Shown here: piece by piece, positions 4,373-63,252 of the stretch
Position numbering within the stretch: the first letter of the stretch is position 1
Layout: each line of letters opens with the position of its first letter
NCBI GenBank assembly: GCA_964016885.1
Contig: OZ024740.1
Span: 89,714,001-89,778,000 of the forward strand
Direction of reading: 5' to 3'
Length of the DNA stretch: 64,000 nt
Origin: Eledone cirrhosa
Lineage: Eukaryota
Notes under the pieces: model-generated
Databases searched by the model: none
Told to the model about the DNA's origin: nothing
The model's input: only the letters and a program-made list of their open reading frames with translations
Position numbers and translations under genes: made by a program

Positions 4373-4516
4373 AAATAATTGTTTTTACTTTAGGCACAAG
4401 GCCAGCAAATACTGGTGCATTACTGGTACTTTATTTTATCGACCCCGTAAGGATGAAAAGCAAAGTTAACCTCAGCGGGATTTGAAATCAGAATGGCAAG
4501 GGCCGTAACTCTATGC
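4373..4516 (-). mobile_element. tRNA-derived SINE, 5'-truncated (same family as 43259-43955)
   Basis: Reverse complement has a B-box-like TTCAAATCCC, core CTTTTCATCCTTACGGGGTCGATAAAATAAAGTACCAGT and tail GCTGGCCTTGTGCC..AACAATTATT. Confidence 0.85.
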
Positions 4517-4979: not shown

Positions 4980-5802
4980 AATCCAACCCCAGCATCAGTG
5001 ATCACCTCCAGCCACAAAGTCCTATGACAAACAGCTAAGTTGCCCGTATGTTTTCGTGCGGCCTCCGAACCCCACAGTGGTGCCTGGCTCCATGGCCTGC
5101 CCTCCTTCTCCACTGGCACGCAGCTAGTCAAACACAGCCTGCGCATCGGCGTTTCCCTGAGGCTCTGCCTCCGGATCTGCCTGCCACACCAATGTCGCTG
5201 CGGTTCCATTGTGGACTCTTTCGGCCTCCACCCGATTTCCTGCCGGCCGCATTCCATGCCATGCTGCCCTCAACGAGGTCATTAAGCATGGCTTGGACCC
5301 AGCAGGCTTCCCTTCCCAGATCGAGCCAGTGGGGCTCGATCGAGGGGACGGCAAAAGGCCAGATGGCATGACCGTCTTTCCGTTCCGCGGTGGCAAACCC
5401 CTCGTCTGGGATGCCACTTGCACCGACATTTACCTGCAGCCGCAACCTGGTGCAGTCTGCGACTCACCCAGATTCTGCTGCACGTCGGGATGAGGGGGCC
5501 AAACTCCTCAAATACCGGTCGCTCTCCGATAGGTTTGAGGTCGTACCCCTGTCAGTGGAGACTTCTGGTGTCCTCGACCCAAGGGCTACCTCCTTTCTCA
5601 CCGCCATAGGCGCTGAGCTGGCCAGCCGCAGGTGTGTGCCCCGCAATTTGGAGCGGCTTTTCAAGCGCGTCTCCATTGCCGTCCTCCGGGGAAACGCCTT
5701 CTCTATTCTGTCCGCCGAGGCTGTGGGTGTGCTCATCGCGTATCAGGCCGTTAAACAAAGTACCAATCCGAAATAGATGTCGATTCTCAACAAAAAAAAA
5801 AA
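4980..5802 (+). mobile_element. CRE-clade non-LTR retrotransposon 3' fragment (zinc knuckle + restriction-enzyme-like endonuclease), decayed
   Basis: GC-rich island reading [71 protein letters not shown]; A-tract at ~5792-5802. Confidence 0.85.
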
Positions 5803-7681: not shown

Positions 7682-7730
7682 TATATATATATATTTATAT
7701 ATATATATTTATATAGTCGAGTGTTTTGTA

Positions 7731-7902
7731 TCAGCTACCACTGGAACAAAAAATGAAGTTGTTCATCTAGCACGTGGTTTCTCATGAGGGTATTTAAAAA
7801 CCGAATATTAATAATATTATGATATCATTGTTATATTATGTTATTCATTGTATACCACGTAGTAGATGAACAACTTCATTTTTTTGTTCCAATGGTAGCT
7901 GA
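7731..7902. repeat. Local inverted duplication (~48-bp arms)
   Basis: 7731-7778 TCAGCTACCACTGGAACAAAAAATGAAGTTGTTCATCTAGCACGTGGT is the near reverse complement of 7854-7902. Confidence 0.8.
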
Positions 7903-10761
7903 GAGAAAATATTCGATAATATTGTTTCGGAGTGACTTGCATCTTATCAACATTGTGCATTCTCCTGTCTACTATATCACTGGAACTGCTGAGAATATAT
8001 ATTATTCTCAAATGTATACATCGGCTGATTTGCCTCATTTGGATAGCGAGCGAAAATAGTTTTTGCTCTTAACCTGGTATAATATCTGCTTTGTTTCTTG
8101 CAATAAAAATCAGAGATCTATAAAAAAAAAGTTAATGTGGCTGCGGACTAAAAATGGTTTACCAAAACATTTTTCATGCATCTTCGGTTTTGAGAAGTGT
8201 TTAATTGATTCATTGTGCTGAATGTTTACAATTGCTTTATAGAATCTCTTTTTCATCATATTCCAACCCACGATAAAATCAGGGGTTGAATCTATTGCGC
8301 ATAAAAGGGAGGTAATATCATTTTAGCGGTGATTTTTCTGAATATTTTTCAAATGTAGTGCAGGCAATTTACTAACTTCTTTGACTTTCCAATTCGTTTC
8401 AAATATATCTTAATATTTGCATCTACGTCTCCTGTAACTCACGACGAATTGTGCGAGAAGAACGGTGTTCTTAGTGTCATTACCACCGCTGCTGGGGAGG
8501 ATGTGAAAGTTACACTCTTTCTATGGGTTGCTAATTCTCTGTTTTAGACGATGGAAGTTTGTGGTTTCTTCCTATTCATAATGTTGCATATGTTGCTGCT
8601 GATATTTCATATTTTTCTTTTTATTGCTGTTTATGATTTAAAAGTATTCAACGCATTCACATATCCGAATGTAATATTTCAGATTTCTCCTTGTTACTAT
8701 AGAATAACTCGTGGTTTTATAGATGCAAACGCCCAGGTAGATTTATGTTTCCCGATGATTATATTGGTCTATTTCAAACAAATCCACAGATTTGGGAAGT
8801 CAATTCACAAGGTTTGTTACATTAAGTCGTATATTGTATCATATGTAATACTTTCTCTATGAAGCAATTTTAGGCATGAACTTACATTTGAAGAACCCTC
8901 TCACCTAATTTTATTTCCATTTTTGGAAATAAATTATATGAAATTATTCAATTATGTTTCTCTCTATTGAATACTATATAAATCGAATACTGATAAATGA
9001 ATTGCCAACCATCTCTCTTCAACGCCAAATTGACTATCTGGGGGAATATTCTCTTTTCCAATTCGTTGAAATGTGATATTCTATTTCGAATGCTAAAATG
9101 ACGAAGTCGACATTGGTCTCTGGAAATATCTATTCACATTAACCGGCTTTCTTTCCGCTTTTCTTTTTTTTAATTATGATTTAACTATTACGATTTCAAC
9201 TACTCTTTAATGCCTTATTGTTTTTTATCAACATTGTTATTCCAATGCCTCGTATAATTTATTAAACTTTTCAACAAATTCCTTCCAGCCGTGAGCATTC
9301 TTTGTTTTCAGCAAGCGATATTCCTCTAAAACATTATCCCAAATCTCGGCTTATATGACGTTTGTGTTACTTACGTGATATCAATCTAAACTTCGTACCG
9401 TCGAAGTGTGGCTTATGTCAAAATGTTCTATGATTCTTTAATATTGGCTACAATTTGCTAGCAGTCAACTTTTAAAGAGGCAATTTAACTAAAACTACAA
9501 AGCAATGTTTGGTTTTCGAAATGTATCCATCAGCATTCATTTCATTTCAATCTAGAACCGTTTCAGATCTTGGATATGTCACAATAACTTTCCAATCACT
9601 TATTACAAACTTAGTGTTTATTCGGATCCTGTTAAAACGATAAACAAAGGAATCGGAGCGCATTTCTGAATTTGTAATTATGCACAAGTTTTCAGTGATA
9701 TGTAACCTGTCATATCACGAATTATTATTGTTTCTTGCAAATATCGCAGCCCGGAGGGATTCTTTGGGTGTCCGTAGATAGGATATCCCATTTATTAGAA
9801 AGGCGAGAATATAATCTTCACACTTCGGCGAAAAACTTAGGAACCAGCAGCAAAATATTTCACTTTAGGATTATGCAGACTCAGAAGTAGAATTATATAA
9901 GAGCCATTGCTACTGTGTTAGTCACGAAATTATTGCCTAGTAATTGGTAGAAATGAGCTAAATATGTTTCCAATGGTAATATGCGTCGCGATTTGATATC
10001 TTGATAGACAGGTATATTATTTCTGTTGAGAAGAAATTAAATCATTTCTGACATAGAGATATATATAATAAGAGTATGATAATTGAAAGAAAATAAAAGT
10101 TGAAGGATATTTCTATAGCCAGGTATACATACCATTGCATATATATATAGAATGTCATTCAACATTACATTACTGAATTCAATGGTATAGCCATCAATTC
10201 TCTGTAAGATTTATCTTTAAAGAAAACAATTATCTGTATATAACACACCACGTTGATCATATGTGAACATTTCCATTCCACAAATATTTGGTATTCGACA
10301 TCTACAGTCACCATTTTAAATGATTTTTCTTTTTTACAATTTCACATTTCCTATTACATGTAAAACGTGCCATTTTCATATAACATGAACTGCTGTGTAT
10401 ATATCCTATCAATCATTTATATGAGACATGAACTGCTGCGCATATTTGGTAATATTTTTGTACGAAACATGAAATTCTGGTGCATATTACGTTGACCTTG
10501 TCTGTTTCAGATGCATTGAATGAATGTTTATTATTACTAAAATATCCTGTTGTATATTACCTTCAATAATAATGATCCTACCATTTGAACTATAGATGGG
10601 AAAATATTAAAATTCACGCCTGTACATGTTGTCATTTTTTACTGTATTCATGGTTTTAAATTATCTGAGAAAATTCATGTTGAATTAGTTCCTACATACA
10701 CCGATGTATCACTGAATGCACAGCTATACTAAGACTCGCATTTATACATGCATGAACACCA

Positions 10762-14840: not shown

Positions 14841-14867
<27 letters not shown>

Positions 14868-14872
<5 letters not shown>

Positions 14873-16171
14873 TAAAATATATGATAAACACAAAACGTGT
14901 TTGCATTGCAATAGACAGTCAGCTATTAATGAAATAAACTAATTAAAGTGAATACAATTTGTCTGTCTCGATATAAGTCAATAAAGACAATGTTATATTG
15001 GCAACTGCCATGATTCCTGGACAGATTTAAATTTCAAAATCTAAACCTGTTCTGTAGACGAATTTGAACCTCGAAACCTAAATCCGTTTCGCAATGGTGG
15101 TATGTGAATTTAAAAATAAAGAGAATCGAAATGAAATTGAAATAAAAAGTGAAATATCCAAATCTTCTGTGTATATCAACAGGAATCCAGTAGAAATTAG
15201 TACATTTCACATCAAAAAATTTTGCAAGTCTGGCTACACGTGTATAGCCAGACTAAACTAGCCTTCCCGCATTAACGGTGCTAGAAATAACAGACATATA
15301 TGCGGGATTAAAAATCAGCTCTAACATTTAAGGAGCAATATACTATATAATATTTTGAGAATAAGCTCTCAGTCCTTTACAATAATTAAGCTCCAGGAAA
15401 GGGTCATTACCGAGCAGTTAAATACATTAAAATATATGATAAACACAAAACGTGTTTGCATTGCAACAGACAGTCAGCTATTAATGAAATAAACTAATTA
15501 AAGTGAATACAATTTGTCTGTCTCGATATAAGTCAATAAAGACAATGTTATATTGGCAACTGCCATGATTCCTGGACAGATTTAAATTTTAAAATCCAAA
15601 CCTGTTCTGTAGACGAATTTGAACCTCGAAACCTAAATCCGATATATATTTATTTATATATATATATGTGTGTGTGCGTGTGCGTGCGTGTGTGTGTGTA
15701 TGTGTGTTTGTGTGTGTGTATATACATATATATATATAAATAAATATATATCAATGTGTGTTTGTGAGCTATATAGACCGGTCACACACAAATCTGTCCA
15801 GGAATCATGGCAGTTGCCAATATAACATTGTCTTTATTGACTTATATCGAGACAGACAAATTGTATTCACTTTAATTAGTTGATTTCATTAATAGCCGAC
15901 TGTCTGTTGCAATGCAAACACGTTTTGTGTTTATCATATATTTTAATGCATTTAACTGCTCGGAAATGACACTTTCCTGGAGCTTAATTATTGTAAAGGA
16001 CTGAGAGCTTATTCTCAAAATATTATATAGTATATATATATATATATATATATATAAGCTCTACACCTCATCACAGAAGTGAACCTAAACATCGAGTGCT
16101 CTCCCGGGTGAACCTGGAGTAACTCCAAGTTACACCCCCTGGATATATATATATATATATGTGTGTGTGTA

Positions 16172-17207: not shown

Positions 17208-17692
17208 AATTACCTCTGTAATTTATTTACATTATTCTTAACTCTGAAGCCGAGAATCATTCGGTTTCCTAATTAGAATTTTAGTCTACGACTTCAATTA
17301 TACCATAAACGTAGTTTTGTCTTTGCGTGTAATTGTTCTCATCGTTCCACATGATAACGTATTATCTTCGTTTTTTTCGTTCATTGCCAGAGAACGTCTC
17401 CACGAACCACCTAATAGAATATTAGTCTACGACTTCATGTATACCATAAACGTGGTTTTGTCTTTGCGTGTAATTGTTTTCACGGTTCCAAATAGGGACG
17501 TATTATCTTCGTTTTTTTTTCGTTCTTTGCCAGGGAACGTTTCCACGAACCAAAGTATCGCCTTCCTGTCTTCCTTCGGTTGCAATGTTTTTCGAAATAT
17601 TTACTTCTGCGTTCACAGATTGATCTTTTTAGTTTCAGACGATCCGGTTAAGGGTGAAAGCAGCGATTTTTTGCTTAAACATTAATCTGTTA

Positions 17693-17700
<8 letters not shown>
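17208..17700 (+). mobile_element. 3' UTR/pseudo-LTR fragment of the Naiad-type PLE, with two ~140-bp internal tandem units
   Basis: Aligns to ~21348-21845 and the reverse complement of ~59856-60352; unit begins TAGAAT.TTAGTCTACGACTTC; ends in (TA)n. Confidence 0.85.
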
Positions 17701-17781
<81 letters not shown>

Positions 17782-20854: not shown

Positions 20855-21888
20855 ATATTTTACGTCTTGATGTGGTAGCTAAGTATATGTTATGTTTATA
20901 CCATTACTTATTTGCATAGGTAAGTATATATTATCTGTATGTTATGTGAAAGTACGTATACTTTCTCGTACGTATATTTGATTGTATATGTTATGGCGAA
21001 TATTTTATATATGCTGGTACATATGCTTTTGATTATGTGTATACGTGAGTTTTGCGTCTGTGTGAGTATGCGGGTTCGTACGTATGTTGGGTGTGTGTAT
21101 ATGTGTACTTTGTGTTTTGGTTGATGTACGTCTCCGAACATATGTGTATTTACATGTAGGTATGTGTGTGCGTTTGTTATATACGTATTTATTTATTTAT
21201 TTATATATGTTTATTTAATTATTTGTATACACGCACACACACACACACATATTTATATGTGCGTGTATTTGTATACCTATGGCGAGTGTTTTTGCGTATG
21301 CTTGTGTATGTACGTATATGGATACGTTTATGTATTTATTTAATTTCAATTACCTCTGTATTTTATTTACTTTATTCTTAACTCTGAAGCCGATAATCAT
21401 TCGGTTTCCTAGTTAGAATTTTAGCCTACGACATCAGTTATACCATTTACGTGGTTTTGTCTTTGCGTGCAATTGTTCTCTACGCTCCACATATGACGTA
21501 TTATATTCGTTTTTTCCGTTCATTGAACGTCAGAGAACGTCTCTATGAACCACCTAAGAGAATATTAGTCTACGACTTCTTTTATACCATAAACGTGGTT
21601 TTGTCTTTGCGTTTAAATGTTTTTCACTGCTCCATATAATGACGTATTATATTCGTTTTCCCAGTTCTTTGCCAGGGAACGTTTCCACGAACCAAAGTAT
21701 CTTCTTCCTGTCTTCCTCCGGTTGCAACGTTTTCTTAACTATTCACTTCTGCGTTCACATATCGACTTTGTTAGTTTCAGAAGATCCCGTTAAGGGTGAA
21801 ATCAACGATTCTTTGCTTAATCTTTAATCTGTTATTTTAATAAATATTTGCTCTACGCTTCTTGTAAATTTGATATATATTTATCCTT
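20855..21888 (+). mobile_element. Long 3' UTR/pseudo-LTR of the Naiad-type PLE (non-coding copy)
   Basis: Starts with TTTTACGTCTTGATGTG.TAGCTA, which directly follows the GIY-YIG ORF at ~63208; colinear with the reverse complement of 58974-60850 minus the Helitron. Confidence 0.88.
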
Positions 21889-21940: not shown

Positions 21941-22786
21941 ATATTGTTATACTGGGGGAGGGTCATATTTGTGTAATATTGCCAGAATTAATAACAGAAC
22001 ACACTCACTGTTTGGTTGGTTTTCGGTTTTCGCTTCTGTGTCTTTTATATCGGTAATCTAATTTATTCGGTCCTCAATGTTGCCATTGACAAACAAACGG
22101 TAAAAAATAATACAGATACAATATAGACACAAACACATATATATATATAGTTTATCAAAGTTCTTTCGTTGCACATCTGCAACATCGTCAGTGGTGCTAT
22201 TGTTTTCTCCCGTTGCATTGTATTTTCTACGCCCTCTTTATTTATTCTGTTTATATATTTATTTACTAGATTATTTTATTTCGTCTTCTTTGCGCATGTG
22301 TTTGAGTGTGTGTATAGTGTTTTGTTTGATTTGTGTTCGTGATTGGGTGACTGTGTATTGGTTAATGTATTCTATCTTTACTAGTGTGTGTTTATATGTG
22401 TTTGTTGTTATTGTGCTTGTGTATGTATTTATTTATTTATTTATCTATTTATTTATTTATACTTCTCTTAGGTCACACTAAATACAGATGGCGTAGAAAA
22501 TACAATGCAACGGGAGGAAACAATAGCACCACTGACGATGTTGCAGATGTGCAACGAAATAACTTTGATAATCTATATATATATGTGTTTGTGTCTATAT
22601 AGTATCTGTATTATTTTTGACCGTTGGTCAGTCAATGGCAACATTGAGGACCGAATAAATTAGATTACCGATATAATGTAAAAGACACAGAAGCGAAAAG
22701 CGAAAACCAACCAAACAGTGAGTGTGTTCTGTTATTAATTCTGGCAATATTACACAAATATGACCCTCCCCAAGTATAACAATATT
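21941..22786. repeat. ~300-bp inverted repeat (PLE pseudo-LTR-like) with a decayed hammerhead core in each arm
   Basis: ~21941-22242 vs ~22480-22786 are reverse complements; CTGACGA-T-GTTGCA-GATG-TGCAAC-GAAA at 22532-22559 (+) and 22164-22191 (-). Confidence 0.8.
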
Positions 22787-22947: not shown

Positions 22948-23110
22948 AACTCAGCGGGATTCGAACTCTGAACAACACGAGATATGGCCCTTTACGTTCT
23001 GATTTAAAATCTCGCCGAGGTAATCTGTGCCTTTCATCCGTATGGGGTCGATAAATAAAGCACGAGATTATGCACTGGACTTTTGCCTGAATTACAAACA
23101 AGTATTATTA
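22948..23110 (+). mobile_element. Decayed tRNA-SINE with a short oppositely oriented SINE head fragment in front
   Basis: GCCTTTCATCCGTATGGGGTCGATAAATAAAG core on +; CTCAGCGGGATTCGAACTC at ~22950-22968 is the B-box region on -. Confidence 0.7.
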
Positions 23111-24564: not shown

Positions 24565-24799
24565 AATACAGTCCACGCTGTAATATGGCCGTGTAGGTAA
24601 CAAGGTAAAACGTTCCCAGTCCACACTGTTAATGTGGTTGGTATGAGGAAGGGCATCCAGCCGTAGAAAACCTGCCAGATAGTCTTATACGAGCGAGACA
24701 CGGTCACCCGAACAATCTTGCCTTAAGTGGGACAACTCCGGTCTAACCCATGCTAGTGTGGAAGATAAACGTTAAACGATGACGATGATGATGATGATA
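24565..24799 (+). mobile_element. SINE (or LINE 3' end) of a second family with (GAT)n tail
   Basis: GTGGTTGG..AGGAAGGGCATCCAGCCGTAGAAAACC..CCATGCTAG..GGAA..ACGTTAAA then (GAT)n; recalled as a common cephalopod repeat, not verified. Confidence 0.6.
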
Positions 24800-31521
<6,722 letters not shown>

Positions 31522-31590
31522 TATGAAGAGAGAAGAAACATTTAGATATAATTAGTAATAAAATGTATCATACCTAAACTGCTCCTAAAT

Positions 31591-31678
31591 TCCTCGACTA
31601 CGTAGTTTCGTGGCATAAACAAAAACAATATATCAAAGATATAGAGTCCTTGCGAGGTCTGCCGACTTATCAAGAGGA
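31591..31678 (-). ncRNA. Type I hammerhead ribozyme candidate (inverted copy)
   Basis: Reverse complement of the 31890-31977 motif. Confidence 0.65.
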
Positions 31679-31889
31679 TACCTCATTTTACTAGTCTCAA
31701 GAACGCGTCTACACGACGTGAGAAAGAATCCCAAAAGGCGGAGGGGGAGATAGTCACGCGATATAACGGTCGAGAAACAGAGCTAAGCCTCCTATGATAC
31801 ATTTTATCGCGTGACTATCTCCCCCTCCGCCTTTTGGGATTCTTTCTCACGTCGTGTAGACGCGTTCTTGAGACTAGTAAAATGAGGTA

Positions 31890-31977
31890 TCCTCTTGATA
31901 AGTCGGCAGACCTCGCAAGGACTCTATATCTTTGATATATTGTTTTTGTTTATGCCACGAAACTACGTAGTCGAGGA
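31890..31977 (+). ncRNA. Type I hammerhead ribozyme candidate, U3-A8 variant with 44-nt loop II
   Basis: Stem I UCCUC/GAGGA; core UUGAUAA; stem II GU(C)GGCA/UGCCAC; GAAA; palindromic stem III ACUACGUAGU; triplet GUC, predicted cut after 31972. Confidence 0.7.
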
Positions 31978-32479
31978 ATTTAGGAGTAGTTTAGGTATGA
32001 TACATTTTATTACTAATTATATCTAAATGTTTCTTCTCTCTTCATAATGTATTTTTAACTCTGATACTGGTTCAGTCTAGTTCAACTGAATTGGTCTGTC
32101 CCAGTCATTCATTGAGCAACATCGGTGAAGTCGGCACCCTTAACTCACAGTTGGGTGCGGATGCATTCATGTATATATGTGTGTGTCCGCATGTATCTGT
32201 GTGTTTCTAAATATATTAATAACTCCCTCTGGTCGAGCAATCTTTGAAGTGTGGGGACAACTGGAAAGCTTCCATTACTCATACTTCTCGCCTTCTTCAC
32301 TACCTCTTCTACGGCCTCGATATGAATACCCCCTCCGCCTCCGTGGTATTTTCTTCGTGGTTATAGGAGGCTTAGCTCTGTTTCTCGACCGTTATATCGC
32401 GTGACTATCTCCCCCTCCGCCTTTTGGGATTCTTTCTCACGTCGTGTAGACGCGTTCTTGAGACTAGTAAAATGAGGTA

Positions 32480-32567
32480 TCCTCTTGATAAGTCGGCAGA
32501 CCTCGCAAGGACTCTATATCTTTGATATATTGTTTTTGTTTATGCCACGAAACTACGTAGTCGAGGA
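32480..32567 (+). ncRNA. Type I hammerhead ribozyme candidate (second tandem copy)
   Basis: Same sequence as 31890-31977, 590 bp downstream; predicted cut after 32562. Confidence 0.7.
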
Positions 32568-32799
32568 ATTTAGGAGCAGTTTAGGTATGATACATTTTAT
32601 TACTAATTATATCTAAATGTTTCTTCTCTCTTCATAATGTATTTTTAACTCTGATACTGGTTCAGTCTAGTTCAACTGAATTGGTCTGTCCCAGTCATTC
32701 ATTGAGCAACATCGGTGAAGTCGGCACCCTTAACTCACAGTTGGGTGCGGATGCATTCATGTATATATGTGTGTGTCCGCATGTATATGTGTGTTTCTA

Positions 32800-32887
<88 letters not shown>

Positions 32888-32928
32888 TATGAAATATAAG
32901 AATCAAAGAACTGTTCAAAACATTATTG

Positions 32929-32975
32929 TGCTTACAGCTGTTTCCTCCAAACCGAGGTTTGGATTCTTCGGAGCA
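32929..32975 (-). ncRNA. Minimal type I hammerhead ribozyme of the PLE pseudo-LTR (U4C variant)
   Basis: Minus strand: UGCU-CCGAAGA-A-UCCAAACC-UC-GGUUUGGA-G-GAAA-CAGCUG-UA-AGCA; stem I UGCU/AGCA, palindromic loop III AGCU, triplet GUA. Confidence 0.65.
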
Positions 32976-34417
32976 ATTTATTAATGCATGGACAGTTATA
33001 TGACCTCCTTTTCAGCCGAGAGACATACCAATACATATTCAAACATTGATACATATTCAAACATTGTGGGTCAACTTTCATTACAGAATTTAGAGTGGCA
33101 GTACACACTTCGAGATTACATTTATATTAATAGGTACAATCAAAAATCAAAGATATAGGTTAAAGTACAACATGAAGATAAGTGGTTATATAGTGCAAAT
33201 GTTATATGTGTGGCACGCATGTGCGTCTTGTTTATATAGTGTGGCAGAGAGATATGTGTGGTAGAGGCACTTAGGTAGGTAAATAAGAGTGTTAGGTTGG
33301 TAGATCTGGTGGGAAAGTCTTTATATGATTGATATAGTCTGTGTGTGGAGAAATATTATAAGCATTAAAGATAGTGCAAGCATTAAAAGTGTTATAAGTA
33401 TTGGAGATGCACAGCGCAGGGATGTCATGTAATTCATGTACTTCGGCATTTTCATGGTCAAGGGAGTGTATATTTCGATTATATGCCTTTCACATAATCC
33501 ACGACAATCCAGTTAGAGATCGTAGTCTGGTGTTCTTTAGTTCGATACAGGAGGTTGTTACGTTTCGAGAAACGCCATTGAATAAGGGAAGTGTGTGTGT
33601 GGCTAAGGGGAGTTAATGCATGCGGGGAGGTAACTCTGGGGTTTCTATATCTAGCCATTAAAATGTGTCCCAATATAGACCCTAAATTCTATGGTGAGGT
33701 GCACCTTCCAAGATAGACTTTTAAAGCATAAAGTGTACTAACTATAGAGTAGTTTAACTAAATTATGCTGAAGGTGATCATATTATTATTAAGGTGGATT
33801 AACCCCTCTTAAGGTGCTACAAATGGAAATTATAGATGATGAGCGAGGATTCTAAATTAATGATCTCTGTGGTTGTAGTCTGCTCATATGAAGAGGCGCG
33901 GTGATTGCAGGATTGCTTCAGGACCCAATGATCTCTGGTAAGGTCTGGGTCATCGCTTGCTACATTGGATGTCGAAAGATAATCGTCCCCAGGCAGGCCA
34001 AATGTCAATCCGCAGTCCTCGCGACCCCTCTCTGACCGTCAGATCATCCATATACGTACAACCCGCACGGCAGTTGCATTGGATTCACTCACTGCGCTCA
34101 CAGCCCGGTCCTACTGGTCAACAGCGCTACTCGATTAAATCATTTTACATCTGTCTAAGGAAGGTGTTTCCTCTGCCCAACACCATCCAACCGATCAATT
34201 CATGCTCAAATTACCCTTAGAGCGGTGTAGTGCCGTCCAAGTGGGTGGATGTTGTCACACCTGCCGTAGAGGTATAAATGGGTATTTTCCCTGCGAAGGG
34301 TTCCAGAGGTATGTCGTTGTTTGTGTTATAATGGATCAGCTAGTGTTGGGTATGTAGTATAGGGTGTGTCTCTGGTGTTTGATGCTAGATGTGGTGTTAG
34401 GTTCCAGTCCGACATTG

Positions 34418-35362
34418 CTATATATAGGGCTTAAAGTTTTGGAAGGAATGTCTGAGGCGGTGCTGGCAAGTTGCAAACACCTCAGATTTTTTGTTAAGTA
34501 GGTTACGGTTGGAGAAGATAATATTGTGTGTCTCTAGTATACAGAGGTTACAGAATTTATTAGGTGGTTTGTACGAGGTCGCGCTGCCTATCACTTCCCA
34601 TTTGAGTGTGTATGGTTTATTTTTAGATTTTAGATAGTGTATGTAGCTAGAAAGTGAGGTGGAGTTGGCTAGGCTGTGCTTTTTGAACGAGATATATCTG
34701 ATTTTGAAGCAGTTAGAAGTGGAACCTACATAGGTTTCTGAAGAGTTATTAGTCGTGACTGTGCATGAGTATATGACATCCTTGGTTAGGCATTTTTTAT
34801 CTAAAGGGCAGGTTCTATTAGCTCTACAGTTACAATTATTCTGTGCGTTAGTCCGCTGGTTATAATGCAATGCGGAAGTCTGTGTGGTGGATATAGGATT
34901 TTGGGTGTTCGGTTTGACAACCCTGGTGTTATTACTTATACTAGTGTTATTTCTATTGTTACTGCCGTTGCTATTGTTGCTTGCTACAGTGGTATTTAGA
35001 GGGTTTGCATCCCGTTGTGATTTTGTTTGTTGGAAGTAAGAACTAATTTTACTATTATTGCTGCTAGCTATGTGGTATGCTAAGTTAGGCGTCGTAGAGT
35101 ATGAGATTTTAATGGTGTTTTTGTTTAAGAGGTTGTGGTACTTGTGTCCTAGAGGGAAGTTTTTATCTAGTAGTGAGAAGAAAGCCCTAGGTATGTTGGT
35201 GGAGACATTTAGGTTGAAAGGAGGGTTGAAAAATGTATTATTTCTTCTTCTATTTTTGCTTTTAGTGTTTGGTGTGTTGCTTCCTCCTAAGGCCTCAGAG
35301 TAGTTTCCATGGTAATGGTTACTTCCGGTGGCACCCTCCGCTTTGGTGTACTTGTGGTTCAT
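34418..35362 (-). pseudogene. C-terminal part of PLE ORF: post-RT region, CxC zinc motif and GIY-YIG endonuclease
   Basis: FFNPPF..VSTNI..KNFP..H..NKNTIKISYS, CNCR....CPL...C, VIYSC..YVGST..FKIRY, WEVI, CNLCILE, LNKKSE..CQHR; RT core absent. Confidence 0.92.
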
Positions 35363-35598
35363 ATTCTCGGTTTGGAGGAAACAGCTGTAAGCACAATAAT
35401 GTTTTGAACAGTTCTTTGATTCTTATATTTCATATAACTGCTCTGTAAATCATCTGATGTTTTTACATTGAGCTACTTAACTTACTGGTAATAAGGTAGT
35501 AATACATTACTGCCTACCACTATTTAGGGTGTGTGTAAAATACTTACAACTGCTTTAGGTTTTGTGTTTACATAACCATAAATAATATAACTAATACT

Positions 35599-37740
<2,142 letters not shown>

Positions 37741-43114: not shown

Positions 43115-43258
43115 GATGGTGTTGTCTATATCTATTATTTGGGATGTATTCTATATTTGTTATTTTCCTTTGCACTCCCTCCTTAAATAATTCAACTTAC
43201 CTAATTACTCTCTTATCTGTATGACCTGCGACCCAAAACAATGTTTATTATTATTTTG

Positions 43259-43955
43259 GTGGGGGATAGGCAGTATCGGGAGAGTATCGGACACCTTGCT
43301 TTGCAACAAAGAGTAACAGCTCTTTATGATCTGAGTTCAAATCTCACCGAGATTAACTTTGTCTTTCATCCTTACAGTGTCTATAAATAAAGTACCAGTC
43401 ACGCACTGGGGTTGATTTAATCGACTTTCCCCTTCCCCGCAATTGCTGGCCTTGTGCCTATATAAGAAATCATTATTATTTTGATGGTGGATAAAATAAA
43501 GTACCAGTAATACACTGGTTAATTGCTGGCCTTGTGCCAAAAAAGTAGAAACAATTATTGTGGCGGTGGATTGGCAGTATGGGTAGAGAGTCGGACCCCA
43601 TGCTTTTAAGCATATAGTCACGTCCCTTTATGATCTGAGTTCAAATCCCGCCGAGGTTAACTTTGTCTTTCATCCTTACGGGGTCGATAAAATAAAGTAC
43701 CAGTAATGTACTGGTGATTGCTGGCCTTGTGCCAAAAATAGAAACAATTATTATTTTAGTAGTTGGATTGGCAGTATCGGTAGAGGGTCGGCCGCCATGC
43801 TTTGCAGCACAGAGTTACGGCCCTTTATGGTCTGAGTTAAAATCCCGCCGAGGTTAACTTTGCCTTTCATCCTTACAGGGTCGATAAAATAAAGTACCAG
43901 TAATACACTGGGTTATTTGCTGCCTTGTGCCAAAAGTAGAAATAATTATTATTTT
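43259..43955 (+). mobile_element. Head-to-tail array of tRNA-derived SINEs (three full + one partial)
   Basis: Each has A-box-like TGGCAGTATCGG, B-box GAGTTCAAATCC, core GCCTTTCATCCTTACGGGGTCGATAAAATAAAGTACCAG (Meta-domain-like by recall) and an (ATT)n tail; heads at ~43259, ~43561 and ~43757. Confidence 0.88.
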
Positions 43956-46900
43956 AGTAGTTATCTATTCTTAGCAGCGAATTCTCAATATCTCTAACAG
44001 ACCCTGTTTATCTTCATTGAAACCGTTTAAACTTCTAGAAAATATCCTAAATTAGATAGATTGTTTCACATGTCATTTCTTTAGCTGAATATATGGATAA
44101 TATAATTCCCTATCAATTTTTGAGAGTTATTGTGAAATCACGATGAAATTCGAAGCGCATTTCTGTATTATTATTTTTGAATGACCAAGTAACTCCATAT
44201 CAAACTACTTTCTCTGCGTATGCTCCAACTGTGTAACTGACCAAGTTGCTTAAAGTGATTGACTGCTTCCCATTTTGAAATTGTAATCGTTATTTTAAAG
44301 GAGTTAAATTGCTAATACCTCAAGTGGAAGCCGAATATCATTCTCTTTGTTTTGCGTTTAAACTGAGCAGTTCTGATTGTTTCGTTAAGGGTTAACCCTT
44401 ACAAAATATACATCTGTGTGTTTTGTTATTCGTTAAGGGTTAACCCTTACATAATATGCATCTGTGTGTTTTGTTATTTATGGACATATCTATGTACGTA
44501 TGTATAACTCTATCCGATTCTCCTTCACTCTCTCCTTTTCTTCGTCTCTCACTTTATCTCCCTCTCTCCTCTCCTTCTTAGTTCAAGGCTGGAAACATTG
44601 ACATGTTCGTTATAGAATCACACCTTCACTAATCTAGCCATATCATCAGAATGAATGAAACAATTATACTAAATTTCCAGTCGTACCGCTAGCTAGATAG
44701 TGGATGTAGAAATATGAAAAGGCATGGGCGAGGTGTTAAGACAAGCTGAAGTGTAATCTTTCAGGAATCATTATATATCTTGAGCAAGTGGCGTTGGAGT
44801 GAAAGGACTGGAGAGAAACTTTGAGTCCAGTTGTATACTTTAGATACGAAAAGCAAGATGGAGTAGAACAACATTATCAAACTTACCAACATCATAGTCT
44901 AGTAAACCTTACACATGCAGAAACTGTGGACTTACTTGCATAACATTGGCAGGTCAAATATGATGCCCGAAATAAACATCCAAACCGAAAGAACTGAATA
45001 TAATTTTCGGATCTTCCTACGTTGATGTCGTCGGTAGAGTTCATCGTATATATATATACACAGACATCAATATTCATAATTTAATGAGGAGTGAGTTAAT
45101 ATATTTCCAGTTGTAACGCAAACACGTTATTAAAAGAATGAATAACATCTCTTCTGTACCTATGCGTGAACGATGGCTTTTTTGAAGGAGAGAAAATTAT
45201 CGCAAAAATGAATCCACAGACCTATGTATTTCTGATAAAATATCCATTTTATTTTGAAAATTGTCAGATGTAAGAAATAAAAAAAAGAAAACACGCTTTT
45301 AGTTTCATTCTGTAATTACGATACATCTCTCTATATTTGTAAATGTATGTTATTGTGAGTATATCCGATATAATATATTCCTTGTAATACTCACGATTAG
45401 TTTCCATAAATGTATTCATGAATATATTAAAGTGTGACGTAGTGTTTTGCAGAAATACGTATACATCCATAATCTCTTGAATTTTCTGTTATCTTTACAT
45501 ATCTATATTGAGTGTTTTCTTTTAAATTGCATCAACCTAACATTGAATTAAAATATCTGCAATCGATGGAAATATATTTCTATATATTACGAAAAAAAGC
45601 AATGATCGTTTGTAATCCAATAAAATACAAGCAACTGTAAATGTAGAATCGATTTCTTTTTAATCACAAGGCTCTTTTGTATGAGAATTTATATAGACGA
45701 TAATCCCTGGCAACATGCATAATGGGTGCTTATTTTATCGATCAGGAAGCGATTAAAGAAATGGAAGTCAACACTAAAAACCAAAGAAATTGAGTTGGAT
45801 AAGTAAGAGGGAAAAACAAACATAAAATATGTACCTGCACCTCAACTCCGCATATATAATATGCATATCACATCATGCACAGAAAATGACTTTTTCAATC
45901 ATATATTGCGCTGGAATCAAGATACATATTATATATTATATTTATCTGATAATAAATGCAATCACGTTTTCACATTGAATCAATAAATCAGTTTCATATT
46001 CCATCTTCATATCTTCAATTCCTAAAATGATATTTCATTTCCAATAGTATGGGCTACACAATATTCAGCCGAGTTATATTCTTTTAAAATAATTTCTTTC
46101 CCGTCTCAGCAGGTGTTACCGTAAACAGAATTACACACTTGGAATACATGATTACTGATTATACTATGGACATTAGAAGCTAGAGGAAACAAACAGACAA
46201 CTATTCAGGTCGGTGCTTATTATTACACTCACCATATTCTCATCCAAATCCATGCTGAGAGATTCTGGATTCGCGGCCTCTTTAAAACAAACATACCTTT
46301 GCACGTTTGTTTTTTTTCTTTTGCTGTGGGAGTGGGTTACTTTATGTTAAGAATTGAAATACTGTCATGATCCAATTTGCATTTCATTTTTCCCTGGTGG
46401 ATAGGATAAGGAACAGAAAACTTAGAGACAACAATACTATTGACCCTTGACACACCCAAGAGAAATGGTCTGGTGAGAAAGAAAGTGAACATTCTAGAGA
46501 GAGAAATCGATTTAGTACAACATATTGCGTCATTTACCTATAAATGCATCTCTTCTCTTATTCTTTAGATTCTCAATTAGATGATCTCCAGTGCTTCAAC
46601 ATCAATCCGGTTTGTTTTGTACTTGTTTGTTCGTTTCCAACTAACGATAAATATATTTAGACATAGGGACAAGTATTAAAAATGACATTGGGGAATACAA
46701 TTGTGGCATTTTATTGTCTGTACTATAGAGGAAATTCGTTTGCCTATACTAAAGCAGTGAATGTTGTATTACAATGTATAAACATGATAGTTACCAGCTA
46801 AGTAACGTCACTTGGATGGTATCTCCTTAATAATATAACAAGAAAAAAAGTTAGAATTGTCATATTTAAACTAATTTAATTATGGGGATTACGAAACAAA

Positions 46901-49021: not shown

Positions 49022-49347
49022 CTGTGTGTGTATGTGGGTGTGTCTGTGTGTGTGCGTATGTGTGTTTGCGTGTGTATGTGTGTGTGTTTGTGCGTATATA
49101 TATATATATGTAAGTGTGTGTGTTTGTGTGTGTATATATACAACCCCCCCCCCACCCCCCACCCCCCCACACACACATATATATATATTATGCTTGAAAG
49201 TATTTTTTTTATATATTTACATATATGTATGTGTGTTGACCAATCAATATTACATAGGCAGTGTGTGTGCAATTTAAATGAGAAGGATACTTGTCTGACA
49301 TCAAATTACATATATTTCTATATTTCATAATGCTGTCACTAAATAAT

Positions 49348-49522
49348 TGTTTCTACATTTTTTCACAAGGTCAGCACATACCCAGTGCATTACTGGTACT
49401 CTATGTTATCGACCCCGTAAGGATGAAAGGCAAAGTTAACCTCGGCGGGATTTGAACTCAGACCATAAAGGTTTGCTGCAAAGCATGGCGTCCGACCCTC
49501 TACCGATACTGCCAATAAACCA
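49348..49522 (-). mobile_element. Full-length tRNA-SINE with 15-bp target site duplication
   Basis: Same family as 43259-43955; CTGTCACTAAATAAT at both 49333-49347 and 49523-49537. Confidence 0.92.
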
Positions 49523-51326
49523 CTGTCACTAAATAATGCTTCATATTCCTCACATTTTAGTTACACCAAAATACACCTCCGAGAAATCATATTATCTCTT
49601 TATATTTATTAATCGTATTAAAACATTAATTCATTTATCGTTTCCACACGGCACCTGACAAAAACCTCTAAATTAGGCCTCATGCTGTGTCAATGGAAAT
49701 CGCTTATTTGGAATGGTACCAAATTTCACGATTCAAAGAAGCTGAATATTACTTGAATATCGGAAGCTTTTAACAAGTTGGCTCGCTTTTGCTAAGTTAT
49801 ATCTGGTTGACATTATGCATATAGATCCTAGCGCCATAATAATGTAATATTGCCAATATGTAGATTATCACTGGTTTGCCAAATAGTCCATAGGCTATGA
49901 TTACACAAAAAATGTCGTTTTCTGTATAAATGCCAATGTGAAAAAAGAGGCCTACAGGTGGAAACATATGTATAATACTTACATATGAAAAGTAAGTGTG
50001 AATTATTGTATTATATTAACTTTTACAACCTTATTATTTTTGTAATTCAATCCAACTTATACTCATGTTTTATTCTCCCGCTTGTTCGGTTCCTTGTTCT
50101 CTTTGTTTATTTGTTGATGGCTGGATAGACCCAGTCTTGATACATATTTCTTTTCGTCCAGGGTGGAATTAGAGTACATGAGAGTTTTGTACCTTCATTG
50201 ATAGCGAATCATACTTTACGCCAATGCTTTGTTATTTGCAATATCCAGGTCTTTCATCTTTTACATTTTTGCTTTGCACTTGTGTCTTTATTGTGTTAAC
50301 GTTTCGTCTAGTTAATATTACGAAACAATCGATTCTATTTCAACATGTTCTAAATATTATTCTTCTGTCTTACATTTGGGCTTAACAAATTATGTTCGAA
50401 CGCGAGTCTCACTAAACTGCATGAGATAATGTGTTCAATAGGTTTGTTATCTAATGTAAAAATGATTCAGGCCTGCTGATTAGACTTCAATCTTCACAAT
50501 TATTTTACTTCGATCATTCGTGTATTCTCTTTATAAAAATGATTGAAATTCAGAGATAATGACATTATTCCAGCCATGTTGACTGGAAAATTCTTGTAAC
50601 TGATTCTACCCCTCAGCTTACTCTCCCACAATTCACTGGTTTCGACTTAGCACATGTTATTCGAATATAAATACTACGCCATTCATAATGAGATTTCAAG
50701 ACCATAAGAAGTTTTTCGTAAATTCCATACATCTACAGAAACTTTTTCACGTCGCGTGGAACGTAGTCGTTCGGTCTTTCGAGGACTAAAAACATGCATG
50801 CAATTCTTAGCAATGCTCTAAAGATTCAGCCTATGATTCTCTAGTATAAACATATGTGAATGTATTGTAATTTCTATCCAAATTGGTTGAATATTGTAAA
50901 GTATATCTGTAACAAACTAAGTGCAGATTTGCAACATTTTTGACAGTGAACATGGCAAAGGTGTGATAGTAATTTAAAGCGTAACGATTTCTACGGAAAA
51001 TCATACAGACTAGAATATTATTCATGTTTTTTTCAATATAATGACCGACCAGAATCTATAAAAGTGTTGTTGTTCCGTAGTAAGATCCAAATCTGTAACA
51101 TATGTTTATCATGTAACATTTGATCCGACTTGAGATAATTTCGCAGTAAGGCTAAATGCTTCAAAAGCTGAAATTAATTTACTATGAAATTTATGGCATA
51201 TACGTTTCCATTAATATGTAGCACATATATCCTCACAGAAAATACATATAATTGTCATCATATATTATCGTATAATACGATGTATACATTTTGCAATCTA
51301 ATTTCTTATTAAAATAGCAAATATAT

Positions 51327-51535: not shown

Positions 51536-54500
51536 TTAATCGTTGTATCGCATTGGCCTCTCTACTAAGCGTCCTCGGCGTGTTCTTTGTTGTTGGGGTA
51601 TGTTATCCGAGATTAAGAATGTGTCAGAAGATTCATCGTCGTCGAATTCAGCACTCTCTGTAGGATTGTTATCGGCGGTAGATGTCATACCTTCGTGCCC
51701 AACGGCCACAGGTGTAGATATTGCTGTTGGTTGAGTTAAATTGGCGCCTTTTGTTGAATTTCCATTGTTTTGTGGTGATGCTGCTGGTGCGAGATTTGTA
51801 GTTGAGACTGTGTCTATTCTTCCACTATTAAATTGTACCTTGGCAAAGTGAGGTGAGATCGTCTCGATGAGTTGAACGTTTTCCGTAAGATCATCACCTT
51901 TATTCCTTATGTGACGTCGATATAGTACGATTGTGCCCGGTTTATTTAGAATCTCTGGTATTTCTGTGCCGTTTTTTGTCGATCTGGTGAATGAAAATAC
52001 TCTTTCATGTGGCGTGGCGTTTGTAGCAGTGCAAAGCAATCCGCGAATAGACGACAGAGCGATTGGAATCATGTTACTCCATTTTTATTGAGATGATTTG
52101 TCTTCAATGTCAGATTTATCGCTTTGCATATTGTGCCGTTAACTCTTTCGCATTGGCCGTTGGCTTGAGGTCGATATAGCCTGGTGTGGCCTTTTATAAT
52201 GTTATTACTCTATAAGAAATCATTGAGTTTTTGTGATTTAAATTGACGTCCCCTATCTGTATGAATCGAACTGAGTTTTCCAAATATAGAGAATATCTCC
52301 AATAGATGTTTAATTACTACGTCCATTGTAATCTCTTAACAAGGAATGGCGAATAGAAAACGTGAGTCCTCGTCAACTATAGTTACCATAATTCGAAAAC
52401 CGTTTGAGATAGCCATGGGACCCATAAAGTCCATTTATAGTCTTTCCCAGGTTTTTGTGGCATGTATTAATCTTCCTGTGGGTGGTTTATATAATTTTGG
52501 TTTACATTCACGGCATATTTTGCAATTGGCGATAACTTCCCTTATTTCATTATTAGGATATGCCAAGTTCATTGATTTACAATAATGTAGAAGTCTGATG
52601 ATTCCGGATGACATAGACGTGAGTGAATATTGTATAATTTGTGTTCCGTCTTAGTAGAGTAGCAGCTCGATAGGGCACCTGTGGCTTGGTTTAATGAACC
52701 AGGTCTATATGAGAATTTAAGGTTAAGATCGCTTAGCTCCAGTCGCCAGTGGGCTACCTTCTCGTTTTTAATCTTGGAAGTGTGTTTTTAGTTGAACGCA
52801 AATGCAACCGATCGTTGGTCTGTTATGATATTACGATGTGGAACAGCGCTAATCTTATGCCTCCATTTTCTACATCATTCTATAATTACGCAACCTTCCT
52901 TTTCGATGATGGAATGTCCTCTTTCTGACTTATTTATGCTTCTACTAAGAAAAGCAATTGGACGACCATTTTCTAATAGAGTTCCGCAAATGGCAATATC
53001 TGCGTCGGTTTCGAATATAAATGGTGCAGTGAAATCGGGTGAACACAGTGATGCCTTTATGAGTTCTTCCTTCATCTTATTAATAGTAGATTTTTCTTCG
53101 TTTGATAGATATTGTTTACCAATGGTGTTTCTTGCTTTTGTAAGAACGACAGAGAGGTTAGAAGAGCCCTTAATCCATTTAGCATAGTATGCAAACAGAC
53201 CGATTACCCAGTTTAACTCTTTTAACGTCTTTGGGAACGGCGTGTAACAAGGGCTGTATAACTTTCAGGGTCCGGTCTTAATTGACCTTTTTCTATGACA
53301 TGTCCAAGGAAATGTATTCTATTTTGATTAAAGCTGCATTTGTCTCGATTCAATTGCATACCTGCATTGTAGCTGCATTCAAGATTGCTTTAGGTTTGGG
53401 TTATGTTCTTCGACTGTGTCTCCTCGTTTAATATTGTCGTCAAGGTATGAGTAGCTATTTTATAAGTTATAATTGTCTATGCAAGTGTCCAATATTTGTT
53501 GGAAAATTTGAACGGCATTTGTGCATCCAAACGGAAGACGGGTAAATTCGTATAGTCCGCTACAGGCTAGGAATGCAGTAAACTTAAAGTCGGAAGATTT
53601 GATGGGTATTTGGTGATAAGCGGCCTTTAGATCTATTTTCGAGAAATACGTGTTTTGAAATTTTGTTGAGTAGGTCTTCGATTATAGCATTTGGGTATGA
53701 ATCCAATGGTGTGTAACGATTTATAGTGCCTAAGTAGTCTATGACAATACGTTTTTTTTTGTTTTCTTGATCTATTACGAAGCACTGCGCTCTCTATGGG
53801 CTTCTGCTATGTTGAATTATTCCAGCTTTAAGCATTCTGTCGATTTCCCTTTTAATGAATTGCTGATCTTTATTGTATTTTGAGGAGATATAGATAATGG
53901 TTTTAATTTTGTCGTATCGATATCAGGCATTAAATCATATTCTTCACAATTCAGAGTTTGCATTGACATACATATCGTGACTGCTCTCATGTCCCCCGCA
54001 TATTTTATTGTTAAAGACTTCTACCTGTTAAGTATATCAATACCCATAACTACTGGAGCAAATGAGTTTGTCAACCACCATTAGATCGATGTGGTATTCT
54101 CGGCCCTCCCATTCTAATGTTGTTTCAAACGTACCTCGTATTATGAGTTTACTGTTGTTGGCTAAAATTACACTCCTATTCTTAGTTTTCTTGAATTTGC
54201 TTGAATTTGTTTGGAATATTTTATCTAGATTTTCGTCAGGTGATTCCAGAAGTCGTTGTTTTATGGAGGCGGATTGAATACCCGACACGAACGCATCACA
54301 AATCAACAATTGTCTATGTTGTTCCCCTGTTAGGGGTTTAGTGGGGCATTTATTTGCGAGGACTTTTAAATCAAAGATTGCCCTTCTTGTTGACAATGGT
54401 TGCATAGTTTATGTCGGGTCATTATTGCTGAGCCTTTCTTTTGAAATGTATTATCAAGAATAGATAATGCCTCATCGAATGATGTTGCTTCTTCAATGAG

Positions 54501-61276: not shown

Positions 61277-63232
61277 TACCCTTCGAAAATGATGTCTCGG
61301 AACTCATACGGAGTATCAAATATCGGAATAGGAGCAATTCCTTCCAGCAGGACCTGAAGAATAGAATTCGTTCTTTTAAGGATTCTAATGCCGTGCACGC
61401 CCATTCCGACAAAACTGGCAACCTATATCAAGTAGAGCGCAGTACTTACCATCAACTAATACATAATGCTTTAACTAAGGATTACCGTAAAACTAATCGG
61501 TGTGTCGTCAATGAAATCAACGATGCTGGGTTTAAAATCACATCTGATCTCAACATCCTGAATCGGACCGAACCTCTGGACCCTATTACTCCCCACTTTA
61601 CCTGAAGGATCATCAATCCAATTTTCCGAACAACCCCTCTATTCGGCTTATTAACCCAAATAATCCGATTCAGGTAGACTTAGTAAAACGATTCTTGATA
61701 GAATTATACCTGAAATTAGAAGTTTGGCACCGCTTGCACCGTGGAACAATTCTTTCGCGGTGATTGATTGGTTCAACGGCATATGTAACAAGGAACATTG
61801 CCGTTTTATCCACTTCGTCATCACAACTACTACACCCCAATCACTTTACCACTTCTCCTTAGAGCTATCAATTTTGCTAAAACACTCACAGTGGTTAAGG
61901 ATTACGAAGTTGATGTCATCCTCAATGCACGTAAGTCGGTGATTAATTTCGACGACTCTATTTGGATTAAACAATCCAATAGTACCACATTCGACGTGAG
62001 TATTGGTGACAGCGATTCTGCGGAGGTTACATATCTCATCGGCCTTTTCCTTCTTTTCTCTATCAAGGACGAATTCCCCAAAGCGGACGGTGGTTTGTAC
62101 CGTGATGATGGTCTTTGACCATGACTAAGTGCGGACCTGGTGCTTGCGACAAGTTCAGAAAAGAACTCACAGCCTTCTTTAAAGGCTTCAACCACTCTAT
62201 ACGGGTTGAGGCCAATCTCTCGGTCGTTAATTACCTCGACGCTACCCTCAATTTATCGAATGGGTTGTATTACCCGCATAGAAAGCCGAATGATACGCTT
62301 AATTACATAAGTAAGCATTCCAACCATCCTGCCAGCATAACCAAGAACCTGGTAAGAAACGTTTCGTTGAGGCTTTCCCGTCTATCTTCTAACGAGCATA
62401 TTTTCAACGACCATTCCACATATTACAATGAAGCTCTTACTCGGAGTGGATTTGTCGATAAGGTAGCATATACAGAGTACGAAAATAGACCTAGTTGAAA
62501 TAGATCCCGTCGCATTTGTTGGTATAACCCACCTTATAATATGGAGGTGGCCACACCATTAGCTAAGATCTTTCTTTCTCTTTTTACGAAGCATTTCACC
62601 CTACACATAAATATAGTAACATTTTCAATAGAAATACTATTAAAATTTCTTACTCTACGACTCCTAACCTTGCATATAACATCACAGCTTCAGATTTAGC
62701 TAAACTACGTAGCCGTAGGAACACGTGCAACCCTGTAGTTAGTACTAACTGTAATTGTAGGAATCGGGTCGATTGCTCCCTATCCTGGAAATGCCTCTCT
62801 AGTAACATTGTCTACAAATGTAAGGTTGAAACACCCACGACCCGTAGTGCCTACATAGGGTTAACCGCCAATAGATTCAAGCAGCATCTTTACATGCATA
62901 CCCATTCTTTTCGTTACCCTCTAAGAAGGAATATGACGTCACTTTCAGCTTATATCTGGAGTATAAAGACAACCACACCCAATATAAGTTACACTGGGAG
63001 ATCCTAGCTAGGGCTAGATCGTATAACGGAAATTTAAGATCATGTGACCTCTGCACCGCTGAGTCCCTGGAAATACTCTACGCCACAGACCACATCTTAA
63101 ACAAAAAATCTAAGGCAATTTCGGCTTGAAAACATAAATTGCACAACACTTTCCTGTATTACAGCCCCACGTTATAACCTAACGGATAGTACGATCAATA
63201 CGTGTATATTTTACGTCTTGATGTGTTAGCTA
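61277..63232 (+). mobile_element. Penelope-like retroelement (Naiad type): RT + GIY-YIG, frameshifted
   Basis: SDKTGNLY, LKDH..NF.NNP..RLINP, VIDWF, FDVSIG..DSAEV, GLYRDDGL, VNYLDATLNL, SNHP, WYNPPY, CNCR, IVYKC..YIG; ORF ends ~63177, then short UTR and (TA)n. Confidence 0.93.
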
Positions 63233-63252
63233 TGTGTGTATATATATATATA

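Follow-up and report, generated by a model that had tools for sequence, protein, structure and literature searches.

A U3-A8 hammerhead motif with a long predicted helix II arm in a 590-nt protein-free repeat of Eledone cirrhosa, a candidate non-LTR retrozyme

A hammerhead motif whose core departs from the consensus at two positions raises the question whether it represents a ribozyme or a decayed remnant, and to which kind of element it belongs. Such a motif is present in a stretch of 64,000 nucleotides of the Eledone cirrhosa genome (GCA_964016885.1, contig OZ024740.1, positions 89,714,001 to 89,778,000, forward strand), which is called the window below and whose first letter is position 1. 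An earlier note had described an atypical hammerhead with stem I of 5 bp, stem II of 6 bp with one bulge, GAAA, a palindrome and a GUC site, all in register. Each of these parts was relocated by us at 31890-31977 (Table 1). Three helices surround the core and the chain ends lie in helix I, as in type I hammerheads. All core positions of this type are present (U4, G5, A6, N7, A9, G12, A13, A14, the pair A15.1-U16.1 and H17), and the Watson-Crick pair between positions 3 and 8 is formed by U3-A8 in place of the consensus C-G, U-A being a published natural variant. The 88-mer occurs three times in the 64-kb window, unchanged in all three cases. Two of the copies lie in consecutive units at a spacing of 590 nt, and only one strand of the unit has hammerhead polarity.

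Shuffled sequences were used to estimate how often such a motif arises by chance. When the 590-nt unit was shuffled 20,000 times with its dinucleotides preserved, a descriptor as strict as the real motif, in which any Watson-Crick pair was allowed at positions 3 and 8, found nothing on either strand. Looser requirements led to 29 matches in these shuffles, and to only two when helix III had to be palindromic; in the rest of the window the loose descriptor gave a single extra match at 20225, which is weak and non-palindromic. Thus, the hammerhead motif is genuine and beyond chance, and its sequence places it among the type I hammerheads known from Penelope elements. We regard it as very probable that a real hammerhead resides here within a non-autonomous unit of the Penelope type.

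Table 1. Positions of the hammerhead, of the repeat unit and of neighbouring features in the window
Feature	Position	Strand	Remarks
Hammerhead copy 1, type I motif	31890-31977	+	predicted cut 31972/31973
Hammerhead copy 2	32480-32567	+	identical to copy 1; 590 nt downstream; predicted cut 32562/32563
Hammerhead copy 3	31591-31678	-	identical to copy 1; within inverted arm
Helix I	31890-31894/31973-31977	+	5 Watson-Crick pairs
Core box UUGAUAA (U3, A8)	31895-31901	+	
Helix II, proximal part	31902-31908/31953-31958	+	6 bp, one bulged C, G10.1-C11.1
Insert between helix II strands	31909-31952	+	44 nt
Helix II arm (predicted)	31902-31958	+	proximal 6 bp with bulged C, 6x3 internal loop, 8-bp helix, 2x2 loop, 6-bp helix, 3-nt loop
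Helix II internal loop, 6x3 (predicted)	31909-31914/31950-31952	+	
GAAA	31959-31962	+	
Helix III, perfect 10-nt palindrome	31962-31971	+	predicted pairs: 2-3 bp with a tetraloop in the monomer, 10 bp in the dimer of two copies
C17 (GUC site)	31972	+	
5' flank, candidate pseudoknot strand	31884-31888	+	complementary to 31910-31914 (5 bp) or to helix I 5' strand (hairpin 31884-31894)
Full monomer, 590 nt	32212-32801	+	41.9% G+C; longest ATG ORF 75 aa (on circle)
Cleavage-defined monomer (predicted)	31973-32562	+	
Upstream partial copy, 0.7 unit, pseudo-LTR-like	31805-32211	+	2 substitutions versus downstream copy
Inverted arm, 280 nt	31516-31795	-	100% identical to 32363-32642
Templated patch, 15 nt	31793-31807	+	copy of 31996-32010; links the inverted to the forward arm; TAT at each end
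Left target (TA)n, ~6.7 kb	24797-31518 (start approximate)	.	200-N gap 29819-30018
Right target, short (TA)n	32803-32890	.	
Hydra-clade Penelope-like element, 5'-truncated	32886-35436	-	RT thumb and endonuclease, ORF 34418-35422; bounded by perfect 71-bp inverted repeat
Hydra-type RT-EN element, degenerate, near-complete	60827-63235		DKT, CxCx5C; no hammerhead found

The view that U3-A8 is a compensatory pair and not decay is sound because of published precedents, not because of variants of this family. Several natural hammerheads have U3 and A8 as a covarying replacement of C3 and G8, and ribozymes of this kind are stated, with reference to earlier work, to be active in vitro (Perreault et al. 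2011, PMC3088659). The swap also occurs in Penelope-like elements, with approximately 1,300 matches in Schistosoma mansoni (Cervera and De la Pena 2014, PMC4209133). Two of the 56 rows in Fig. S3 of the latter paper contain U3-A8; one of them, S. mansoni family 3, has the same seven letters UUGAUAA, while the S. japonicum counterpart of the other one is C3-G8. As the swap was in print in 2011 and 2014, it can no longer be called a surprise, and the term covariation used in the earlier note had to be abandoned, since none can be read from three identical copies. A pattern scan allowing C3 or U3 and G8 or A8 yielded no C3-G8 relative of the family. Eleven metagenome and two viral matches were rejected as chance hits, none of the 13 forming helix I (0-3 bp) or aligning to the unit. 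For three public sequencing runs that contain the unit (X1, X12 and X15) no differences within the motif were listed, apart from a few letters near contig ends that were not itemised; X1 covers all of the 88 nt, X12 all but 3, and the main contig of X15 the first 34.

The 44 nt between the strands of helix II had been taken for a loop, a view that the folding models do not support. Most of these nucleotides are paired in the prediction and extend helix II by helices of 8 bp and 6 bp. When the insert was folded alone, it reached a z of -4.1, and 4 out of 1000 shuffles were equally stable; the same arm appeared in free and in constrained folds. The statement that this loop far exceeds those of minimal hammerheads of Penelope-like elements (PLEs) holds against 3-9 nt across all 56 metazoan representatives in PMC4209133 Fig. 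S3 and against 3-10 nt in the 26 hammerhead rows of Hydra-clade elements (PMC8557442 File S2), all of which are C3-G8, unlike the motif studied here. Long loops 2 (35 and 29 nt) are listed in the table of PMC8557442 for spike-moss PLE-X elements only.

Five bases of the arm that remain free in the predicted internal loop (31910-31914) match 31884-31888, one nucleotide 5' of helix I, as a perfect complement. The chance of such a 5-base match in the flank amounted to 6/590, 120/17,854 and 1.9% under three null models (0.7-1.9% overall) for a pairing that was noticed post hoc. This candidate pseudoknot competes with a weak extension of helix I, and a hairpin of the flank with the 5' strand of helix I appeared in free folds of both the flanked monomer and the circle. 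We rate its formation as less likely than not, while a switch between off and on states by the two alternative pairings of the flank is plausible from the folding models. In approximately 40% of the hammerhead representatives described in PMC3088659, 4-6 bp formed between the arms of helices I and II take the place of the loop-loop contact. The predicted pairing resembles these pseudoknotted hammerheads in that one arm pairs with the other in place of a loop-loop contact, but differs in that its partner would lie within a long helix II, as an internal loop, and in that an inhibitory alternative is predicted for the 5' flank.

The suspicion that standard searches overlook the motif was confirmed. 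Two local scans gave no Rfam hammerhead family or other ribozyme at this position at E up to 10, and a published descriptor (PMC4209133) fails on four counts, as it demands CUGANGA, GAAANNUH, a stem II free of bulges and 3-10 nt in loop 2. In the whole window, Rfam returned 234 matches at E up to 1; the 150 listed ones are microRNA and snoRNA models lying on microsatellites or inverted repeats, none of which reached the gathering score.

Our main reading, to which we assign a probability of roughly 55%, is that the 590-nt protein-free repeat is a non-LTR retrozyme, that is a non-autonomous Penelope-like element, whose tandem transcript would cut itself as a double hammerhead and which would depend on a Penelope-type enzyme acting in trans. 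No tRNA part was found in the unit, and an origin from a tRNA or SINE was rejected on this ground; five runs of T4-5 also argue against a monomer made by polymerase III. A 12-nt pyrimidine-rich word occurs twice per monomer (32329-32340 and 32411-32422), 82 nt apart and mostly in predicted hairpin loops, and may possibly be a protein-binding signal.

Foldings of monomer, dimer and circle were compared with each other. In the bare 88-mer the active fold lies 1.1 kcal/mol above the minimum. Two 88-mers cofolded without constraint gave exactly the double hammerhead, with -57.3 kcal/mol versus 2 x -21.8 (-43.6) kcal/mol for the separate molecules, a gain on dimerising that was reached by 12 out of 200 shuffled 88-mers. 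With flanks, the cofold was still the double hammerhead (-68.7 versus 2 x -29.1 kcal/mol) and the monomer folds were inactive. In the natural tandem 31870-32590, calculated with a pseudoknot-free model, the minimum is 5.5 kcal/mol lower than the double hammerhead, which in turn is 9 kcal/mol better than two active monomers, and in the 590-nt circle the active monomer fold is 6-7 kcal/mol above the minimum. The circle of the ribozyme strand folds with a z of -5.5 (0/60 shuffles as stable), the other strand with -0.9 (8/40); out of 16 control strands with 12 shuffles each, one reached -4.5. These models predict an inactive lone copy and a dimer in the form of the double hammerhead.

On this basis the putative retrozyme may act as follows. 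A lone copy would be off because the flank 31884-31888 pairs with the 5' strand of helix I in the predicted fold. Two copies would be held together by the 10-nt palindrome, and helices I and III of each would be completed by the other; a weaker prediction is that the long helix II arm would present 31910-31914 and capture the flank as a 5-bp pseudoknot, by which helix I becomes free and the loop-loop contact is replaced. Two cuts would release a 590-nt monomer, which a host ligase would close to a circle whose fold presumably blocks the ribozyme. Circles of retrozymes and ligation of the RtcB type have been shown in coral, mussel and axolotl (PMC7229834). We expect that cleavage of the dimer is probably detectable, even though minimal hammerheads of Penelope elements cleave poorly in vitro (PMC4209133) and eight of nine Xenopus retrozyme dimers did not cleave (Li, Clavereau and Pollet 2026, bioRxiv 10.64898/2026.07.22.740005).

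These low activities also nourish the alternative that survives best, in which the element is the same, but its ribozyme is weak or dispensable: uncut multimers would be copied, and the hammerhead fold would be kept as a protein-assisted or protein-binding signal and not for making circles. The Penelope-type PAc, as described in PMC11167929, is not cleaved unless the protein is present, inserts equally well with a dead ribozyme and uses uncut RNA, and no RNA-seq ends occur at the site. In the window, copying of more than one unit requires a circle or an uncut multimer, and the forward copy runs twice over the cut site and bears no scar there; a circle and an uncut multimer are equally good explanations of this. 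The active folds lying above the minimum in their full context point in the same direction. On the other hand, the remainder of the core is preserved together with G10.1-C11.1 and GUC, and each of the two core changes makes up for the other. Furthermore, U3-A8 ribozymes have been reported as active in vitro, and the 590-mer is predicted to fold strongly and strand-specifically as a circle. Altogether, we consider a dispensable ribozyme unlikely, while the chance that an RNA circle served as template falls a little short of even.

The same unit was met in 20 of 24 listed public sequencing runs. Half or more of the sampled words were present in 14 runs belonging to 10 studies (nine without X1, a possible source) and bearing 11 organism labels. 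In six listed runs the share of words was 0.31 or less, and only X15 was used of these. The runs were examined as contigs, and no RNA run was listed among the holders; the Hi-C run X22, of which only ~1% was sampled, gave 0 reads. In all three runs studied by contigs (X1, X12 and X15, labels A, I and L) position 32790 is joined to 32217 by the window's own 16 linking letters, and a single 620-nt contig of X1 spans the unit. Because the unit closes on itself, it is self-contained and does not form the tail of an ORF. Closed contigs of this kind fit an RNA circle and a DNA tandem equally. The three runs differ from the window by 2-4 changes (<1% divergence) at a word depth of 2-8. At 32366, X1 and X15 read A, in contrast to G in the two copies of the window. 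The X1 contig lacks a flank, while X12 and X15 show loose ends resembling genomic flanks. Contig ends at 32392 (X1, within 3 nt) and 32363 (X15, exact) coincide with the 5' junction and the inversion junction of the window. They hint at genomic copies and may represent recurrent break points or related insertions.

The wide and nearly unchanged distribution, together with the flankless contig of X1, would agree with an RNA circle that carries a ribozyme and passes from one host species to another, either in the manner of a viroid or as a horizontally transferred retrozyme, and is only occasionally written into DNA. However, as the organism labels are coded, this near-identical spread is accounted for just as well by close kinship (congeners), a shared cobiont, prey or cross-contamination. 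The ribozyme is found in one polarity, as in retrozymes, whereas many infectious circles differ in this respect (PMC11721086), and the predicted fold is branched with 62% of its nucleotides paired. Moreover, an integrated DNA copy exists, in contrast to viroid-like circles consisting of RNA only, and the loose ends and contig breaks mentioned above look genomic. We therefore judge a travelling RNA circle to be quite improbable.

The retrozyme reading draws further support from the arrangement of the locus, which runs from (TA)n through the inverted arm, the patch and 1.7 tandem units ending at 32801 to (TA)n again. TAT or ATA is found at every junction, although TAT occurs at just 24 of the 590 positions of the unit, and both outer ends overlap the TA array. 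The forward copies differ from each other at 2 internal positions. The inverted arm agrees with the distal and not with the adjacent copy at 31987/32577, and it carries 29 nt absent from the adjacent one. From these differences we concluded that the structure is no fold-back artefact and that the insertion is young. A DNA satellite or an assembly fold-back with a decayed, seemingly compensated hammerhead is hardly credible, for even if a gap in the assembly interrupts the 6.7-kb (TA)n array next to the locus and perfect inverted repeats can be read artefacts, the joins contain a templated patch, independent runs contain the same unit and core, and 1.7 copies with TA ends correspond to the layout of a retro-insertion. 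This array is one of two very long (TA)n arrays in the window, the other one (~2.1 kb) covering 35590-37735.

A layout of this kind, with a partial tandem, a 5' inverted copy, unequal ends and a microsatellite or (TA)n target, has been published for Penelope elements (PMC8557442). In experiments with purified PAc (PMC11167929), both strands of AT-rich DNA were nicked and extended, and priming took place inside the RNA; the start site had no homology to the target, unlike the ends described here, which show short TA overlaps. By analogy, an endonuclease may have nicked (TA)n on both strands and each end may have primed at TAT in the RNA. One cDNA would comprise 1.7 units and the other one 280 nt, and a template jump that left the patch would have joined them head to head. 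Which enzyme moves animal retrozymes is treated as an open question in PMC7229834 and PMC7761336. For the putative retrozyme studied here, a helper of the Hydra clade seems the most likely one, with slightly better than even odds. The (TA)n target, a similar helix III and the presence of two Hydra-type elements in the window, one of them with the same inverted layout, would fit; Neptune elements target microsatellites as well (PMC8557442). No similarity between the unit and the Hydra elements in the window was detectable, and a descriptor scan gave no hammerhead in either of them.

The element 32886-35436 encodes CxCx5C, CxxC and CxH and has a 3' region of 1.46 kb without a hammerhead; an Asn/Ser/Thr-rich insert of ~60 aa precedes its CxCx5C linker. 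The degenerate element 60827-63235 bears at its 5' side an inverted copy of its own 3' end (91.6% identical), the same layout as that of the retrozyme insertion. Placement of protein P0001 in the Hydra clade is based on motifs taken from PMC8557442 and on RT-EN relatives at 28-34% identity, while a Pfam search with this protein revealed no domain; its atlas neighbours, represented by very few records, stem mostly from molluscs or cnidarians. A connection of the adjacent endonuclease ORF with the unit was rejected for now: it lies on the opposite strand, is separated by (TA)n and shows no homology.

Some other repeats were noticed in the window. Direct and inverted duplication clusters at 14864-16035 and 21941-22785 (94-99% identical) resemble Penelope insertions, and no hammerhead was found in them by the descriptor scan. 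A repeat family at 17208-17704, 20855-21846 and 59856-60856 is 87-91% identical and contains an internal tandem of ~142 bp; a tandem of ~196-bp units has dispersed copies (43247-43962, 4374-4516, 22979-23109 and 49342-49537), and an imperfect 210-bp inverted repeat at 7711-7922 is MITE-like. Broken frames at 203-980 resemble a Helitron Rep/helicase, and those on the minus strand at 51536-54408 resemble parts of an LTR retrotransposon (integrase, RT/RNase H and protease). A G+C-rich frame at 5001-5776 resembles the endonuclease end of a non-LTR retrotransposon; the plus strand of 5001-5590 folds at a z of -4.5 (12 shuffles).

How does the unit compare with known systems? With the Cercyon Penelope hammerheads of S. 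mansoni (PMC4209133) it shares the type I fold, U3-A8, a helix I of 4-5 bp, G10.1-C11.1, a palindromic helix III and a predicted dimer, and a bulge within helix II is described in that paper for the D. virilis Penelope. In contrast to the minimal PLE hammerhead characterised there, it has a 44-nt arm in place of a loop II of 3-10 nt, no extra base between 9 and 10.1, and a palindrome of 10 nt. Furthermore, those hammerheads reside in the pseudo-LTR of an RT-encoding element, whereas the unit is ORF-less, closed and without a link to neighbouring ORFs.

Common to the unit and to metazoan non-LTR retrozymes (PMC7229834; bioRxiv 10.64898/2026.07.22.740005) are a non-coding tandem with <50% G+C, one type I hammerhead per unit and a self-paired predicted circle. 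Its length of 590 nt falls within the 51-972 bp of the preprint, in which minimal motifs are also admitted as retrozymes, but exceeds the 170-400 nt of PMC7229834. The retrozymes of the latter paper possess a canonical core and a loop 1-loop 2 contact, unlike U3-A8, the long arm and the candidate pseudoknot predicted here, and a ribozyme blocked in the circle, as predicted for this unit, would be unusual for animal retrozymes according to that paper. A full Penelope-type insertion layout with an inverted arm likewise sets the unit apart from them. As to Hydra-clade PLEs (Craig et al. 2021, PMC8557442), the (TA)n target, the 5' inverted copy and the partial tandem are shared, as are a hammerhead on the sense strand, separated from the 3' end by some 90-430 nt, and a near-palindromic helix III of 3-4 bp; yet these elements encode an RT-EN protein (DKT, CxCx5C, CxxC, CxH), motifs that occur in the neighbours and are absent from the unit. 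Out of four 10-11-nt words of the unit, three were absent from the supplement of that study, and one occurred only in GC-rich algal consensi. Each ingredient is known already; in combination, U3-A8, a folded 44-nt arm, a candidate pseudoknot with an inhibitory alternative and a closed 590-nt unit were not met together in the literature consulted, and similar cases may be listed by Lunse et al. (RNA Biol, small Penelope hammerhead variants) or in the supplements of the 2026 preprint.

A far-reaching version of these ideas would see in the unit a retrozyme that spreads between animal species nearly unchanged, is switched by two CCUC and two GAGG strands (monomer circle off, dimer on through the helix II pseudoknot), is the first of a long-armed U3-A8 class missed by Rfam and the published descriptor, and bears the fingerprint of a Hydra-clade helper in its junctions. 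As a whole, we hold this to be improbable. Two consequences are closer at hand. Animal retrozymes are undercounted where a census relies on CUGANGA and short loops. Moreover, the young insertion keeps the full footprint of a Penelope event, with both ends in (TA)n, an inverted arm and TAT at each joint, by which the idea of a helper becomes testable on a defined RNA.
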